From the IMG/VR virus record IMGVR_UViG_3300036939_000059, positions 2,802 to 66,801 of that record: a DNA stretch of 64,000 bases. One strand, written 5' to 3'. Numbering within the stretch: position 1 is the stretch's first letter; the number at the start of each line of letters is the position of its first letter. The notes beneath the pieces are model-generated. The model was not told the DNA's origin, did no database searches, and saw only the letters and a list, made by a program, of their open reading frames with translations. Position numbers and translations under genes: made by a program. The stretch comes from a virus. Below are positions 12,790-34,995 of this stretch, in pieces.

Positions 12790-13235
12790 TGAACAGCAAA
12801 CAACTAGAGCTACTTCAATCGCCCCCACCTCCCGCTATTAAAGCCCTCAGCTTGAAACAGCCCTACGCCTGGGCATTGTTCAACGGCAAAGACATTGAAA
12901 ACCGCACGTGGCGAACCAATCACCGAGGCTTACTGCTAATCCACGCCTCTGTATCTAAGTCACACCGTTACTGGAATGAAGCTTGTGAGGTCTGCCGCAA
13001 CCAAGGATTAATTATTCCTGGTAAGGCATCCCTCACCTACGGCGCAATCATCGGAGCCGTTGACGTAGCCGACTGTCGCTGGGGAGAAGAAGCCAACGGC
13101 TGGGGCTTTGCCCAACATTGGCACTGGAAGATCGAGAACCCCAGATTATTCAAAGAGCCAATTCCGATGAAGGGTGGGCTGAGCTTTATGAAAACTGACT
13201 TGACCCTACAGGAGGTCAGCGCCTTATGTCAGTAA
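12786..13235 (+). CDS. ASCH domain protein
   Basis: ALSLKQPYAWALFNGKDIENRTWRTNHRGLLLIHAS; start moved to ATG 12786. Confidence 0.9.
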   Translation: MMNSKQLELLQSPPPPAIKALSLKQPYAWALFNGKDIENRTWRTNHRGLLLIHASVSKSHRYWNEACEVCRNQGLIIPGKASLTYGAIIGAVDVADCRWGEEANGWGFAQHWHWKIENPRLFKEPIPMKGGLSFMKTDLTLQEVSALCQ

Positions 13236-15610
13236 AGCGCGATGCGTCGCGGTTATCTCAACAACCGATTGAGGAAATGAACGGTTTTAAGATAGGCGAT
13301 CGCGTCATTGAAGACAGCAACAATCCAGATTGGGGCGTGAAAATCGATTCTTTGATTAAGCACGCAGAGATTTTAGGTTTTCGCCCTAGCTATTTTGGCA
13401 GCGACACAATTTTCCCTTGGGTTCGTGACAGTAATGGGGCTGAAAGTTTTGCCCTTTGGGAGTGCTTGTCTCATGACGCAGGCTACCAGTCCTCAGCTAC
13501 CCCGTGCGTGGGAGACGCTCGAAGGGAAAGCGAAGAAGCTTTTAAGGAAGTCGTCGAAGCTTTGTCTAATCCCGCTCCGACAACCAAAGAAAAACAATGC
13601 TCGCAATGCTCGACAAATTTGCAGGAATCGGAGGAGCCACTATCGCCGGCGACTGGCTTGGAATCAAAACCACTCAGTTTGTTGAAATCGACCCCGACGC
13701 TCAAGCCGTCCTCCGACACTACTACCCCAGCATCCCAATCCACCCTGACATCAGAACCTATCATCCCAAACCCAGAGAACACGACATCCATTGGAATTCA
13801 TTCCCCTGTACAGGTACATCCAGTGCTGGAACTCGCGCAGGACTTAATCACGTTGAATCCCGTCTTTGGTTTGAGGCCTTGCGATGCGTCGTCGAGGGGC
13901 ATCCAAAATTCGTGGTTATTGAAAATCCTGAGGGACTCATCCACCGAGGTCTTCGAGCAGTCCTTGGCGGACTCCGAATGGCAGGCTATGCGTGGGACGA
14001 TCCGCAGCTCATATCGGCGTCTTGGCTTGGCGCTGTGCACCGCAGAAACCGACTCTTCATTGTTGCCTACCCCAACGAGTTACTCAGAAGGTTCCGACAC
14101 CCACCGACCCGCTGGGACGAACAAATTAGAGCGAACGTTGAAGCTTCTTCCCACTCCAGTGGCACGGGACGGGAAGGGTCGAACGGGCACACCCAACGAG
14201 TCATTGACCGAACCGATTCAGGAATACTTAACGGGAACGGACAAAATGCACCCAGCAGTTCCGGGTTGGATGATGGGGTTCCCGCCTGGTTATGCGGAAA
14301 AGATTTCAATGGCTGGTGGCGCGACAATCCAGCCCCACGATACCCAGGCGTTGCGGCCAGAACCCCAGGACGCCGAGCCTGTATCAAGCTCTACGGCAGA
14401 GCTGTCATGCCCCAACAAGCCGCGATCGCACTCCGTCGAGTCCTTTACCTCAATTCCCTCCTTACCTAAAATGCTTTGCACTATCAAACAGCCCGGTCAA
14501 CCTGAATTGATCGGAACAATCGCCCAGGACTTAGGCAGTGAGTTCTCGATTCGTATTGAAGGGTCAGAACAGCCCGTCACCGTTCCCAAGCTCTACGTAT
14601 TTCCTGGCTCCCAAAAACCTCAATCACCTGAGCCTACTTGGAAAGAGGGCGATCGCGCCTACTACCAGAATCAGCCTTGTACCATTCTTGTCCCAGTGGG
14701 CAGGGGTAAGTGCGTCAATAAGACCAAAATTGCCACAGCAGAAGACTTTGAGGGTTTCTGGGTTCCTACAACCGACTTGGCAGCGGCGAGTGACAACCCC
14801 AACCCAAAACCGCGATGCGCCGCGCCTATCGCTCAGGCGAACGACCTTTTAATACTTGATGCCGCCCAGTCTCAGTTGAAAGAACAGATCGCCAAATTCA
14901 AAGGCGATCGCAAAAAAAACAAAGCTCTAAAGAATTGTGAAGCTCACCTCGAAAACATTCAGGAGCTACGCGCTGTTGTCGAACAGGGTCAGCCCCTGGT
15001 TGGGATGTGGGTCACCAAACAAATTCCCGATTTTAATTGCGTCGGGCAAATCATTGAGGCGAATTCGGGTGAGCAATCGACGTGGGTGCAATGGTGGGGG
15101 AATCCCACGCCCTATCCAGAACAACTAGGCATCCTAACTTGGGACGAATTCGCCCAGACCACAACGCTTGAACCTAACAGCAAGATTCGTATTATTCCGG
15201 GGCACAAGACTTTGAAGCCCGGAACCCTATTCCAAGTTCAGGATCTGCACGCCAATGGCTGGGTCTTGACCACTGACGACCAGTTAATTTCTAGTAAGTA
15301 TTGGGAGGTAGCTGATGACGAATCCCAACCCCAACCGACCGACACAAGTAGTTTTGAGATTCCTGAACCAGCCGAAGACATTCCAGCAACTGAAGCAGGA
15401 AGTCCCGCTCAAGACTTGTTCCTTGAAGGCCTCCCTAGGGATTCTGATTTCCCAAGGGAGGGTCAGGTACAGCTACAAGATGAGACTGTACAGGCGGACT
15501 TGAAAGACGCGGGGACAGAGGAGGAAAACGATTTGGTCTATCGTCAGCTCCTACAAATGGGCATCCCCCCAGCCCAGGCTCGGTACTTAGCTAGCCAAGG
15601 AGTACGGTAA
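13226..15610 (+). CDS. 794-aa protein carrying the putative C5-MTase beta segment (TRD plus motif IX) with long extensions
   Basis: GGAGG RBS; LLPTP..LLPTPVARDGKG..MHPAVPGWMMGFPPGY at 14060-14293; short SH3/KOW-like segments (FKIGDRV, WKEGDRAYY). Confidence 0.75.
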   Translation: MSVKRDASRLSQQPIEEMNGFKIGDRVIEDSNNPDWGVKIDSLIKHAEILGFRPSYFGSDTIFPWVRDSNGAESFALWECLSHDAGYQSSATPCVGDARRESEEAFKEVVEALSNPAPTTKEKQCSQCSTNLQESEEPLSPATGLESKPLSLLKSTPTLKPSSDTTTPASQSTLTSEPIIPNPENTTSIGIHSPVQVHPVLELAQDLITLNPVFGLRPCDASSRGIQNSWLLKILRDSSTEVFEQSLADSEWQAMRGTIRSSYRRLGLALCTAETDSSLLPTPTSYSEGSDTHRPAGTNKLERTLKLLPTPVARDGKGRTGTPNESLTEPIQEYLTGTDKMHPAVPGWMMGFPPGYAEKISMAGGATIQPHDTQALRPEPQDAEPVSSSTAELSCPNKPRSHSVESFTSIPSLPKMLCTIKQPGQPELIGTIAQDLGSEFSIRIEGSEQPVTVPKLYVFPGSQKPQSPEPTWKEGDRAYYQNQPCTILVPVGRGKCVNKTKIATAEDFEGFWVPTTDLAAASDNPNPKPRCAAPIAQANDLLILDAAQSQLKEQIAKFKGDRKKNKALKNCEAHLENIQELRAVVEQGQPLVGMWVTKQIPDFNCVGQIIEANSGEQSTWVQWWGNPTPYPEQLGILTWDEFAQTTTLEPNSKIRIIPGHKTLKPGTLFQVQDLHANGWVLTTDDQLISSKYWEVADDESQPQPTDTSSFEIPEPAEDIPATEAGSPAQDLFLEGLPRDSDFPREGQVQLQDETVQADLKDAGTEEENDLVYRQLLQMGIPPAQARYLASQGVR
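13597..14469 (+). CDS. dcm: C5 DNA cytosine methyltransferase (alpha subunit) nested in another frame of 13226-15610
   Basis: Motif I FAGIGG, IV SFPC, VI IENPEG, VIII HRRNRLFIVA, X LYGRAVMPQQA; no motif IX in this frame. Confidence 0.92.
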   Translation: MLAMLDKFAGIGGATIAGDWLGIKTTQFVEIDPDAQAVLRHYYPSIPIHPDIRTYHPKPREHDIHWNSFPCTGTSSAGTRAGLNHVESRLWFEALRCVVEGHPKFVVIENPEGLIHRGLRAVLGGLRMAGYAWDDPQLISASWLGAVHRRNRLFIVAYPNELLRRFRHPPTRWDEQIRANVEASSHSSGTGREGSNGHTQRVIDRTDSGILNGNGQNAPSSSGLDDGVPAWLCGKDFNGWWRDNPAPRYPGVAARTPGRRACIKLYGRAVMPQQAAIALRRVLYLNSLLT

Positions 15611-27697: not shown

Positions 27698-28288
27698 ATG
27701 AGCAAAAAAGCGATCGCACACCTAGCCAGCATTTCGCCCTACTCTCAATCCAAGTTTCACAACACGCCCAAACTTCCAAAAGAATTGCCCGACGACTACG
27801 AAGCTAGAACCTGGGCAGAGCGCATTCATGTTGATTCAGAAGGGCGAACTTATGTCCCGCCGATGGCATTTAAAAACTGCATAGCCGAGATAGCAAAGTT
27901 TTTAGGGGAGCAGGTTCCCGGTCGAGGTAAAGCAACCTGGACAAAACATTTTGAAGCGGGAATTCTGTGTGTCACTCCTGTCTTGCTTCAGTCACCAACA
28001 ACCGGGAACTTTGTTCTTAAAAGTGACTGGGAGGGAGATTGGGGATTTTACCCAGCCGATGGGGTAAGAGGCAGTGGTAAAAGAGTTATGAAATGCTATC
28101 CCGTCATTCCAGCCTGGATAGGAACTTGCGAATTCCTAATCTACGATGACACCATTACCGAATCTGTATTTGCTAAACACTTAGAGCAAGCAGGGCGATT
28201 AATTGGTGTTGGGCGATTCCGTCCCCGTAACAATGGTTATTTTGGTCGATTCAAAGTAGAAGAACTGAGGTGGGAAGATGACATCTAA
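27698..28288 (+). CDS. Stand-alone Cas7/RAMP-like protein (candidate guide-RNA-binding effector)
   Basis: HLASISPY first strand, YVPPMAFKNCI helix, RV..YPVIPAW..EF, and G-rich loop AGRLIGVGRFRPRNNGYFGRFKV. Confidence 0.8.
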   Translation: MSKKAIAHLASISPYSQSKFHNTPKLPKELPDDYEARTWAERIHVDSEGRTYVPPMAFKNCIAEIAKFLGEQVPGRGKATWTKHFEAGILCVTPVLLQSPTTGNFVLKSDWEGDWGFYPADGVRGSGKRVMKCYPVIPAWIGTCEFLIYDDTITESVFAKHLEQAGRLIGVGRFRPRNNGYFGRFKVEELRWEDDI

Positions 28289-28799
28289 TACTCAAGTTTC
28301 AACCGAGCAAGTAGGCAAAAGAAGCCCTGTTACTCAGCAGCTAATCCAGCGGTTGCGAGATTTGTGCGTGGGTGAGTTTATTTCCTATGGGGAGTTGAGT
28401 GCGATCGCTAACTGTGACGTCACGGGTAAGTATCGCCACTACCTCTCAACTGCCGTTAATGCTGTGGAATCAGAATACTCAGTTGTAGTGGTTTGCAAAC
28501 CCAAGGAGGGGTTTGTCAGGCTCAAAAACGAAGAGATTGCCAAACACGCCAACACCCTGCACAGGAAGCGGCTAGCTTCTGATACTCAGCGGTATCGTTC
28601 CAAGGTCGAGTGCATAGACTCCAGTCGTCTGACCCTGACCCAGCGAATTGAGCATGGGTTAGCCTTGGCTCAAATTGGACTGAGGGAGATGGCAACGGAT
28701 AAACCTTTTGAGCAGGAAACCCGCAAGCGCCTTGCTCAGTCTCCTGAAAATCGCTTGAATCTTGATGCTTTGCTGAGTGATATGCGATCGTTCCGGTAG
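28278..28799 (+). CDS. Partner protein of the RAMP-like gene (winged-HTH-like N-terminus)
   Basis: Overlaps the RAMP stop; GEFISYGELSAIANCDV..YLSTAVNAV..VVVCKPKEGFVRL; ends 6 nt before the array. Confidence 0.6.
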   Translation: MTSNTQVSTEQVGKRSPVTQQLIQRLRDLCVGEFISYGELSAIANCDVTGKYRHYLSTAVNAVESEYSVVVVCKPKEGFVRLKNEEIAKHANTLHRKRLASDTQRYRSKVECIDSSRLTLTQRIEHGLALAQIGLREMATDKPFEQETRKRLAQSPENRLNLDALLSDMRSFR

Positions 28800-28805
28800 A
28801 ATGGG

Positions 28806-29241
28806 GTTGCAACACACCACTCCTCACCTCAGCTCGGCTCCTCGCATCACGACACATCTCTCTACAACACAACTCGACTAGCGATCGCTCTTACTTCGGT
28901 AGGGGCGATTTGCTTTAGGATGAAGAGGCGTCGCCTCTTGACTCATTTCTACTCCGCTCGTCTCGACTTGCCGCGACTCTTCGCAACACAACTCATCACA
29001 ACTAGCGATCGCCCTTGCTTCGGTGAGGGCGATTTGCTTTAGGATGGAGAAACACCGCACCTCAACTCGGCTCTATTCAACTCGACTCAGCACGCCACTT
29101 CTCAACACAACGCAACAAGCGGCACAAGGATTAAACCCCCTGCGCCGCCCTTGTATTATGGAGAAGCATCTCAACTCTTTACATCACGTCGCTACCCATC
29201 TCCTCTCAACGCAGCGCATAGCCCCTAGGTACTCTAGGGGC
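28806..29241 (+). ncRNA. Four-unit array of 5-nt-periodic tracts (NN + CDC), each closed by a hairpin; candidate guide RNAs
   Basis: Pentamer tracts 28806-28880, 28930-29004, 29054-29118, 29168-29217; hairpins 28884-28909 and 29008-29033 (cUUCGg loops), about 29119-29148, and 29221-29241. Confidence 0.8.
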
Positions 29242-32358: not shown

Positions 32359-34995
32359 ATGCGATCGCCCCGTCTCCACCTCGCTCACCGCCACACTGCT
32401 AGAAGTCAAGCCCGTTCCCTGTACGCGCTCTCTCCCACCGAGCAAATCCTTCTTGCTCGAAAAGACTTCAACGCTTTTCGCTGGTATGTCAAAAACCACA
32501 AATCTTACACGCACCACCAAGAGTGGTCGAGGTATCTCAACACCGACCTAAACAGCAGGTGCTTAAACGGTATTGCGGGCGATGACCTACTTATCCTTGC
32601 TCCGCGTGGTTCGTCAAAATCGACATTCTTAATTGAGTGGGTTGCCTACCAAATCGGGCGACACGCTGCGCCAGAGATTCGCCAAGCCCTCAAGGTGCTG
32701 TATGTGAGTTATGAATTGAAGACAGCGCGTCAGAAGTCTCAACAAATTAAGCGCCTGCTAACCTTGCCAGAGTATCGGCGTGTATTCCCGTGGATTCGAC
32801 CGGGAGAAAACTGGGCGAATGAGTTGTGGGAGATTGACTTTGCTCACGCTGGTTTGCCAGGGGCTGATGAACCCTACACTGTGGCAGCGGCGGGATTGAT
32901 TGGGAACGTCACAGGTAAAAGGTGCTTTGTTGGTGATACATTAATAGAGACCGAGATAGGCGCAGTACCCATCTCGGAAATTCAAAAATATATCACTCTC
33001 AGGATTTTAACTTTCAATGAATCAACCCACACCCTCGAATGGGGACGCATCAAGAACGTTGCGTCAAGACCCTCGAATGAACTTGTTGAAATTAGAACAA
33101 GTGGAGGGCGTAGAGTGCGCTGCACTGCCGACCACCCTATCTATACACTGGAACGAGGATACTCAGAGGCCCAGTATTTACTGGCAGGGGATACCCTTGT
33201 CGTCACTACCCAAGGAAAAGAAGAAATACAGAAGCTGCCTTGGATGCAGCAAGGAAATGACCAACACTTCGGCGCATATTTGCCAAGACTGCTATCAGGC
33301 TTCCAGGCAGGTGCGTTTCAGGATTCGCTGCAAGGGCTGTTCGTCGATCTTCCTTCTCAGTCCAAGCGAACTTCAAAAGAAGGTGAGAAGAGGGGGCTTC
33401 GAGTTCTTTTGCAGTCACAAGTGTCATGGAGACACCCGCAAGAAGCCAAAGGATTGCGAGAGCTGTGGAATGAGGCTTTGCTCTACATCCAGGGGAAAAA
33501 GAGGGAGGTTTTGCCCGGACTGCCTACAAAAAGCACGGACAGTGCGCACACTACAACCAGCCAAGTGCTTGAACTGCGATCGCTTGTTTGCCCCGCGAAC
33601 CAGCAAGACTCAGCATTGTTCTCAGGCTTGCGCCAATGCGACGCACTCAAGAAAGATGTCTGGGGAAGGCAACAGCCACTACAAAGATGGACAGAGTTAC
33701 GGCAAGGATTTTCTCGACTTGAGAGCGGCTGCCTTGAGTCGGGATGGCTACCGTTGCACTGCTTGCGGGATTACGGAAATAATCGAACCCAAGGGCAGGT
33801 GGGGCAGGCTATCGAACCTAGTAGTCCATCACTTAAACCACGACCATTGCGACAATCGCCTTCAGAATTTGGCGACTATGTGTCGAGCGTGCCACGTCAT
33901 TCATCACAAAACGAAAAAGACTGGGGATTAGACAGGGTTGTCTCAGTTGTTAAACTTCCTGCCGTGACACAGGAAGTTTACGACATTGAGGTAGAAGGAA
34001 ACCACAACTTTTTCGCCAATCAAATACTATCGCACAATTGCCACATTTCAGTGTATGATGACTTAATTAAATCCCCAGAAGCGATCGCGAACCCCGACAT
34101 CCGTGAGCAGATGGTTTCCAACTATCGCAACATCATCAAGCCGACTCGCTTTGATGGCGCTCGCTCAATCTGTTTGGGGACGAGGATGCGACCGGATGAC
34201 ATTTATTGCACCGAGTTCACGGCAGACAATGACTGGCAAGTTGTTGAGCAATCCGCAATCCTCGACCTTCCCGATGGTGGGGAGTGTAGTTACTGGGAAC
34301 CCGAAGACGATGAATCCCCTGGTCAAACCCTTGCGTTCCTGCAAAGTATTCGGGAAAAAGAACCCGAAACATTCAGCTACCAGTACCAGAACAAAGTTAT
34401 CCGGATTGCTACCCAAGCCATTACTCCTGAACTAATCACTAAAGGTATCATCCCCTCTCAAATGGATTACTTGGCTTTGGGCATAGACCTATCCGCAGGC
34501 GAACGCGAGGTCAACGACTACACCGCTTTTGTCCTAGGGGGTATGGCGCGGGACGAAAAGGGACGCAATCGCTATTTTATTATCGACTGCTGGGAAGATA
34601 GACTGATGGGCAACATGAAGAAGTTAGAGGCGATCGCTGTCCTCTACGACTGTTGGCGACACCTCTGTCCTTACCTTGAATTATTTGTGGAGTCCAACGG
34701 CTACCAGCTTAGTTTTGCGGGAGACTACCAGGACTTTGTTGCCGAGAAGGAATACTACGACTGGCAAGTCACAGCGGTTCACTCTGCCGAGAAAAAACTT
34801 GAGCGACTGCGGGGCGTCACTGGGTTACTGGAGAATAAACTGGTCACCTTTAATCAGTACGGGCGGCTGATGGGGAAACTTACCCTGCAACTGACCAACC
34901 ACGGAAGTACTAGCCATGATGACTTAGCCGACGCTTTTGAGAAATGTTTGAGAGGGTTGAGGGTGCGATCGCCTTTGACCGGGGCTAATTACTAA
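32359..34995 (+). CDS. terL: Terminase large subunit with intein
   Basis: Walker A LAPRGSSKST, Walker B ISVYDDLIK, RSICLGTR, nuclease LGIDLS..DYTA, VESNGYQ, HDDLADA. Confidence 0.93.
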   Translation: MRSPRLHLAHRHTARSQARSLYALSPTEQILLARKDFNAFRWYVKNHKSYTHHQEWSRYLNTDLNSRCLNGIAGDDLLILAPRGSSKSTFLIEWVAYQIGRHAAPEIRQALKVLYVSYELKTARQKSQQIKRLLTLPEYRRVFPWIRPGENWANELWEIDFAHAGLPGADEPYTVAAAGLIGNVTGKRCFVGDTLIETEIGAVPISEIQKYITLRILTFNESTHTLEWGRIKNVASRPSNELVEIRTSGGRRVRCTADHPIYTLERGYSEAQYLLAGDTLVVTTQGKEEIQKLPWMQQGNDQHFGAYLPRLLSGFQAGAFQDSLQGLFVDLPSQSKRTSKEGEKRGLRVLLQSQVSWRHPQEAKGLRELWNEALLYIQGKKREVLPGLPTKSTDSAHTTTSQVLELRSLVCPANQQDSALFSGLRQCDALKKDVWGRQQPLQRWTELRQGFSRLESGCLESGWLPLHCLRDYGNNRTQGQVGQAIEPSSPSLKPRPLRQSPSEFGDYVSSVPRHSSQNEKDWGLDRVVSVVKLPAVTQEVYDIEVEGNHNFFANQILSHNCHISVYDDLIKSPEAIANPDIREQMVSNYRNIIKPTRFDGARSICLGTRMRPDDIYCTEFTADNDWQVVEQSAILDLPDGGECSYWEPEDDESPGQTLAFLQSIREKEPETFSYQYQNKVIRIATQAITPELITKGIIPSQMDYLALGIDLSAGEREVNDYTAFVLGGMARDEKGRNRYFIIDCWEDRLMGNMKKLEAIAVLYDCWRHLCPYLELFVESNGYQLSFAGDYQDFVAEKEYYDWQVTAVHSAEKKLERLRGVTGLLENKLVTFNQYGRLMGKLTLQLTNHGSTSHDDLADAFEKCLRGLRVRSPLTGANY
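32923..34038 (+). mobile_element. Intein (372 aa) in terL just before Walker B
   Basis: Block A CFVGDTLIET, block B CTADHPIY, block F VYDIEVEGNHNFFAN, block G ILSHN/C. Confidence 0.95.
33017..33931 (+). CDS. HNH endonuclease with multiple Zn ribbons, in the +1 frame inside the intein
   Basis: RDGYRCTACG..VHHLNHDHCDNRLQNLATMCRACH; many CxxC pairs; true start uncertain. Confidence 0.85.
   Translation: MNQPTPSNGDASRTLRQDPRMNLLKLEQVEGVECAALPTTLSIHWNEDTQRPSIYWQGIPLSSLPKEKKKYRSCLGCSKEMTNTSAHICQDCYQASRQVRFRIRCKGCSSIFLLSPSELQKKVRRGGFEFFCSHKCHGDTRKKPKDCESCGMRLCSTSRGKRGRFCPDCLQKARTVRTLQPAKCLNCDRLFAPRTSKTQHCSQACANATHSRKMSGEGNSHYKDGQSYGKDFLDLRAAALSRDGYRCTACGITEIIEPKGRWGRLSNLVVHHLNHDHCDNRLQNLATMCRACHVIHHKTKKTGD

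Follow-up and report, generated by a model that had tools for sequence, protein, structure and literature searches.

[quoted passage not shown] The closest known counterpart of the locus studied here is the type II VIPR system of Escherichia phage SUSP1, which consists of Vipr, vap1 and four vrRNAs (PMC13142463; 10.64898/2026.04.26.720927; PDB 36pp). Cryo-EM of SUSP1 Vipr showed one protomer per pentamer, with the constant triplet sequestered and the two variable bases (NN) presented; each triplet (G1, G2 and Y3) is flipped out by a pair of adjacent protomers, which present N4N5 (10.64898/2026.04.26.720927). The NN pairs read double-stranded DNA with one base skipped per pair, and transcription is silenced without cleavage (PMC13142463; 10.64898/2026.04.26.720927). 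The natural targets of SUSP1 are a satellite and rival prophages, and the output is silencing of rival mobile elements at the level of transcription, without a nuclease (PMC13142463). A preprint of 22 October 2026, based on the entropy periodicity of a genomic language model, reported 21 clusters that have non-GGY triplets beside Vipr-like folds, describing the non-canonical VIPR motifs as "e.g. GAC/NN or CAC/NN" (10.64898/2026.10.21.760802). In its accessible text, this preprint gives motifs only, without per-unit promoters, clade assignment or a correlation with protein residues.

Vipr also resembles the Cas7 subunits of class 1 CRISPR effectors (Csm3, Cmr4 and type VII Cas7), with which it shares an RRM core, a G-rich loop, a thumb hairpin and polymerisation on a guide RNA at a fixed step per subunit. 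The two differ in that step, which is 5 nt with three bases flipped in VIPR and 6 nt with one base flipped in Cas7.

In this study, we analysed a 64,000-nucleotide stretch of a virus record (the window), in which a first-pass annotation had described a stand-alone Cas7/RAMP-like protein. We conclude that the locus is very probably a complete VIPR locus of a temperate-looking tailed cyanophage, working as an RNA-guided silencer. Like SUSP1, it encodes a RAMP of about 195 aa with a single RRM, a G-loop and a thumb, the C-terminal 135 residues of which can be aligned with SUSP1 Vipr (hhalign 97%). As in SUSP1, a small accessory gene follows vipr and is itself followed by vrRNA units on the same strand, the units contain 10-16 pentamers (constant triplet plus NN) and a structured 3' tail, and the system is phage-borne and without a nuclease. 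It differs from SUSP1 in its triplet, C-T/A/G-C in place of GGY, and in its predicted host, a biocrust cyanobacterium. The sections below show the fold of the protein, its homology to SUSP1 Vipr and the architecture of the locus; for the repeats they show strand and register, and conservation across related loci. Preprints already cover the VIPR system (April 2026), how it works and even non-GGY motifs, and the additions made here are modest: a clade-specific G-less triplet, a promoter-like box per guide and a cyanophage host.

The vipr gene product and its phage

The vipr gene (27698..28288, + strand, ATG start) encodes a 196-aa minimal RAMP (Cas7-like) protein, identified from the ORF list, an AF2 model, Foldseek, a profile match to PDB 36pp and hhalign. 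The RAMP motifs quoted in the first-pass annotation were all present in the translation of this ORF: HLASISPY at residues 8-15, YVPPMAFKNCI at residues 52-62, RV..YPVIPAW at residues 129-140 and the G-rich C-terminal loop AGRLIGVGRFRPRNNGYFGRFKV at residues 165-187. The ATG matched the N-termini of homologs with 88% and 84% identity. A word-indexed search returned 2038 Vipr homologs, mostly of 185-200 aa and about 60% identity and none of them named, and an exhaustive profile search placed 2047 representative clusters in the family. Alignment of 32 members revealed 40 invariant columns, the G-rich C-terminal loop included. With more than 2000 homologs, and 40 invariant columns among the 32 aligned members, vipr is a real gene and not a chance ORF.

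Searches of Pfam, NCBIfam and PADLOC gave no match for Vipr or for the Vap-like protein encoded next to it, and the sole PHROGs match of Vipr was phrog_4652, whose function is unknown. Among GenBank phages there was no close Vipr homolog, only distant matches to the SUSP1 group (E ~3e-3). The AF2 model of Vipr had a pLDDT of 92.3 and a pTM of 0.85, and its last helix and last strand flank the G-rich loop. When this model was compared with the PDB using Foldseek, the top matches were only CRISPR backbone RAMPs (type VII Cas7, Csm3, Cmr and Cas7-11), with a probability of 1.00, E ~1e-7 and TM 0.5-0.6 for type VII Cas7 and Csm3. The Cas7/RAMP fold proposed on the first pass was thus supported by structure prediction, the model having an RRM core with a G-loop.

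At the level of sequence, the homology was to SUSP1. The Vipr family profile, searched against solved chains, matched PDB 36pp, "SUSP1 Vipr protein", with E 2.3e-8, and a single-sequence search with the window Vipr found the same entry with E 1e-4. The hhalign comparison of the family with SUSP1 Vipr gave a probability of 97.2% and E 3.8e-11 over residues 54-190. Judged by this homology, 27698-28288 encodes the Vipr of a VIPR system carried by a phage.

The window comes from a 67,357-bp virus record assembled from a biocrust metagenome, with a CheckV completeness of 51% and 89 HIP1 sites. The record encodes a large terminase, virion structural and major head proteins, a replication initiator and a partition protein; its ten largest ORFs either lack a match or are phage genes for packaging, the head, replication and partition. 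We read it as a putative tailed cyanophage, temperate-looking. Two of its ORFs stood out on inspection: the large terminase ORF (32359-34995) is unusually long at 878 aa, with PHROG matches split between its N- and C-terminal parts, and a 794-aa ORF (13226-15610) had only a weak match to a DNA methyltransferase.

Across the whole record, at its completeness of 51%, there was no match to Pfam Cas1, no match to the Pfam RAMP model and no array of CRISPR-like spaced repeats, and Rfam, including its CRISPR repeats, found no family in the window or the record. The cas-gene search covered the Pfam models of Cas1 and RAMP. Unlike in a class 1 CRISPR locus, no Cas5, Cas6, Cas8, Cas10 or Cas11 partner and no spacer-repeat array were seen here, and unlike Cas7, Vipr has no Pfam RAMP match at the sequence level. 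The earlier statement that cas1 and a CRISPR array are missing from the window therefore held for all 67,357 bp. The term "stand-alone Cas7" needs correction in two respects: the family has already been named and published as Vipr, and a conserved partner gene, predicted to encode a winged helix, adjoins it.

The best structural matches being Cas7 and Csm3 subunits, the gene might be what is left of a CRISPR-Cas effector (a type III, IV or VII Cas7), decayed or solo and with no function of its own. We regard this as extremely improbable. More than 2000 members, about 60% identical and with 40 invariant columns, make up the family, which is always paired with pentamer tracts; its sequence homology is to Vipr and not to any Cas7 family, and the record is without Cas1, a Pfam RAMP match or a CRISPR-like array.

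Accessory gene and putative guide units downstream of vipr

The vap-like accessory gene (28278..28799, + strand) overlaps the vipr stop by 11 nt and encodes a 173-aa protein predicted to form a winged helix with C-terminal helices. Its AF2 model (pLDDT 88) had the element order H-b-H-H-b-b, followed by long helices. Foldseek returned only weak matches to wHTH regulators (E 0.02 or worse), and the protein profile weakly matched the HTH of O6-alkylguanine transferases. Comparison with SUSP1 vap1 by hhalign gave a probability of 17%, which is not significant homology, and the gene is for this reason named vap-like and not vap1; the lack of detectable homology between the two accessory proteins is a further difference from SUSP1. 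A survey of neighbouring genes showed that pentamer tracts flank vipr in 115 related loci and that homologs of the vap-like gene adjoin it in 25 of the 115, while the other neighbouring genes were not conserved.

In a periodicity scan of the whole window, runs of CNCNN were confined to the + strand at 28803-29224, and GGYNN, GNGNN and RCCNN gave no run anywhere. The downstream pentamer array on which the first-pass mechanism relied is real and consists of four CNCNN tracts within 28813-29219. Unit 1 (28797..28914, + strand) begins with TAGAAT at 28797-28802, followed by 13 CNC+NN pentamers (28813-28877) and a hairpin tail (28880-28914). Unit 2 (28916..29038, + strand) has TAGGAT at 28916-28921, about 12-14 pentamers (28932-29001) and a hairpin tail (29004-29038). 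Unit 3 (29040..29153, + strand) has TAGGAT at 29040-29045 and 12 pentamers (29056-29115), and its tail is also structured and of another sequence. Unit 4 (29154..29241, + strand) has TATTAT at 29154-29159, 10 pentamers (29170-29219) and a hairpin (29220-29241).

A structured 3' tail ends all four units, with z scores from -3.2 to -5.5, and the same was seen across the clade of related loci that carry CTC triplets. The unit 1 hairpin had a folding energy of -19.8 kcal/mol (z -5.5) on the + strand versus -9.7 on the - strand, and the unit 2 hairpin -22.2 kcal/mol (z -5.1) versus -15.0; G-U pairs together with a C(UUCG)G loop account for this gap between the strands. The unit 3 tail reached -14.1 kcal/mol (z -3.2) and the unit 4 hairpin -16.1 kcal/mol (z -3.9). 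Within the cyanobacterial clade, 3' flanks were more stable on the + strand (p 0.002); the family-wide test of + versus - folding of 3' flanks showed no difference, so that the asymmetry is seen in the cyanobacterial clade only. Three of the four units carry simple hairpin tails, unlike the pseudoknot of SUSP1. By eye, the unit 3 tail (29114-29153) is unlike the hairpins of the other three units and contains two interleaved complementary pairs, GCGGC/GCCGC and ACAAGG/CCTTGT, from which a pseudoknot of the kind described for SUSP1 tails might arise.

Of 24 units in six phage contigs from the CTC clade, including the window, 23 had a TANNAT box within 35 nt upstream. In 18 of the 24 the box preceded the first CNC unit by exactly 16 nt, compared with a background of 7.6%. 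This count covers the window record, with boxes at 28797, 28916, 29040 and 29154, and five further contigs (G404-G408, loci L119-L136). An own -10-like box per unit is a difference from SUSP1. The arrangement suggests that each guide may have a promoter of its own instead of being processed from a shared precursor, and we infer that the guides are expressed. A generic scan for sigma-70 promoters and terminators found nothing within the array.

The triplet orientation, the strand asymmetry of the hairpins and the TANNAT boxes are together evidence that the putative vrRNAs lie on the vipr (+) strand. We also considered a minus-strand RNA, in which the motif would read GWG/NN, and rejected it: the tails fold far worse on that strand, and both the -10-like boxes and the family's GGC orientation are on the vipr strand.

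An alternative reading of the tracts is that they act as DNA, as iterated sites for the winged-helix protein or for Vipr in, for example, an origin, a partition site or a regulatory array. The predicted DNA-binding fold encoded by the neighbouring gene and the empty scan for consensus promoters and terminators would agree with such sites. The homologous SUSP1 tracts have been shown experimentally to be RNAs bound by Vipr (PMC13142463), and in the window the hairpin strand asymmetry and G-U pairs point to RNA, as does the constant spacing between each unit and the -10-like box in front of it. The letters at NN are hypervariable, differing from unit to unit and from locus to locus, as would suit guides rather than binding sites. 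We consider DNA sites very unlikely.

Triplet classes and candidate triplet-reading residues

Among the window pentamers, base 1 was C in 83-93% and base 3 was C in 85-100%, the middle base being T or A with some G; a conserved G was absent. The resulting C[T/A/G]C matches neither GGY nor the alternatives YNNGG, NNNGG, YNNNG and NNNNG listed in the discovery paper (PMC13142463), and being G-less it falls outside those motifs. One of the window's triplets, CAC/NN, is shared with the published non-canonical motifs (10.64898/2026.10.21.760802). CAC/NN has already been reported, so the G-less variant is not new in kind. C[T/A/G]C is a variant within the VIPR kind and gives no ground for exclusion.

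We surveyed 115 related loci drawn from genomes and viral contigs. On the vipr strand, the pentamer tracts flanking vipr were of the classes GGC (127), CGC (50), GnC (29), GAC (28), CTC (20), CnC (17), GTT (8) and GTC (6), and the reverse-complement forms were nearly absent. As a positive control, the same script recovered the four verified SUSP1 vrRNAs as GGT/NN on the vipr strand, with one unit upstream and three downstream of vipr. In a maximum-likelihood tree of 73 classified Vipr proteins, all eight CTC-type loci formed one clade (support 99/90). Its members are the window, two Microcoleus/Allocoleopsis genomes and viral contigs, and its neighbours are CGC-type loci. In this protein tree, the G-less CTC/CAC triplet marks one cyanobacterial clade, and at least 20 triplet changes are needed overall.

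To relate the triplets to the protein, SUSP1 residues were mapped onto the family from the hhalign alignment. The two residues that clamp the non-target strand in SUSP1, K82 and K88, correspond to K67, which is nearly invariant, and K83, which is invariant among the 32 aligned members. R179, which holds the pyrimidine Y3, corresponds to the invariant R175, and base 3 was C in nearly all triplet classes. The parts that hold the scaffold and clamp the DNA look conserved in the alignment. The three guanine-reading residues of SUSP1 were all replaced: D177 by R173, R138 by Y134 and W178 by F174. Because of these replacements, bases 1 and 2 must be read in another way than in SUSP1, and the readout of C-W-C is not transferable from the SUSP1 structure. 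Changing GGY abolishes SUSP1 function (supplement to the SUSP1 work), and each triplet would therefore need its own cognate protein.

Residues were then compared with triplets over the 115 loci (L001-L115). The results showed that position 118 was V in every class whose base 1 is G, and L, M, A or Y in those where it is C. Position 134 was F in all base-1-G classes and Y in 14 of 25 classified base-1-C sequences, including 7 of the 8 sequences of the CTC clade. Position 173 was R where base 2 is G, and often F, T, S or Q where base 2 is A or T. When this covariation was put to an independent-pairs test, well-supported branches supplied just 1 and 4 usable pairs, too few to reach significance. 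A tentative and rather doubtful reading of these patterns is that the triplet would be a lineage-specific address, co-evolving with positions 118 and 134 for base 1, with 173 for base 2 and with R175 for the base 3 pyrimidine. On this reading the address would have switched at least about 20 times, one cyanophage clade would have become fully G-less (C-T-C) with per-guide promoters, and VIPR systems would thereby be orthogonal to one another.

Candidate targets and proposed mechanism

For the targets, 25 guide-like tracts from six contigs, one of them not a real vrRNA, were searched against all six contigs, including the five related phage contigs. No guide of the window matched the genome of the window's phage above background. 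Unit 3 matched a related rival phage contig in 21 of 24 NN letters under the rule of skipping one nt (L121:1603-1638, corresponding to G404:41603-41638). The match covers the start region of a 157-aa ORF of unknown function that is absent from the window's phage, and its score in G404 was reached by 0 of 200 shuffles of that guide and by 0 of 40 family-wise shuffles. As one imperfect match in 375 kb of related phages, it is suggestive, though not decisive, of a candidate target in a rival phage; no credible target emerged for the other guides. Unit 2 had no match at up to 3 mismatches in the five related phage contigs, and exact NNx scans of viral contigs with units 1-3 found none.

Two further sets of matches were judged most likely to be chance. 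Unit 4 had four exact matches, all in contigs of 33-38% GC and none with a HIP1 site; two of them share the site sequence and the other two are unrelated. The pattern of this unit is AT-rich, and the matches are in unrelated DNA. The sole metagenome match of unit 3, also exact and in unrelated DNA, lay in a tail-collar gene of 29% GC.

Unit 1 matched, with 2 and 3 mismatches, 2 of 401 cyanobacterial genomes (G065 and G219), and the reversed-pattern control matched none. The site is a MITE-like intergenic repeat located 3' of a nadC-like gene (L117:1420-1560 and L116), and we treat these matches as a weak lead. The MITE-like element contains nested inverted repeats, CAGGGGTTTAAACCCCTG and AGTCCTCTAAAAGAGGACT. 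A genuine VIPR system could accordingly have natural targets in host or own-regulatory sites, such as this repeat 3' of nadC or sites of lysogeny control. Consistent with this, the repeat is conserved and the control is empty, and published satellite vrRNAs point at host decoy sites (10.64898/2026.10.15.759431). The two matches are at one homologous locus and so represent a single event, and the unit 1 pattern is A-rich. No self-target was found, and published VIPR natural targets are mostly other mobile elements (PMC13142463). We rate host or own-regulatory targets as quite unlikely and favour silencing of rival phages or other mobile elements.

Under the favoured reading, a separate -10-like box on the vipr strand would probably drive transcription of each of the four units, giving a vrRNA of about 90-110 nt with 10-14 pentamers and a 3' hairpin. 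Vipr protomers would polymerise along this vrRNA, one per pentamer, sequestering the constant triplet (C-T/A/G-C in place of G-G-Y) and presenting the two variable bases. The concatenated NN dinucleotides would pair with double-stranded DNA, every third target base being skipped, and the filament, aided by the winged-helix Vap, would keep a rival phage or another mobile element from being transcribed, with no nuclease involved. For the window locus, RNA binding, filament formation, the NNx target rule and silencing are features that we infer by homology. The first-pass annotation had arrived at a mechanism with one protomer per pentamer, the triplet gripped, NN exposed and silencing without cleavage; this is the published VIPR mechanism, carried over to this locus by homology.

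The locus adds a biocrust cyanophage example to a months-old class of RNA-guided DNA binders. Within one Vipr subfamily of about 60% protein identity, the scaffold varies among GGC, CGC, GAC, CTC, GTT and GTC. If the address reading is true, triplet switching would yield orthogonal VIPR systems, and the solo guide RNAs of rivals would be unable to hijack them. If the correlated residues set triplet specificity, they would provide a handle for mutually orthogonal VIPR tools and would help to explain how phages escape guide hijacking.
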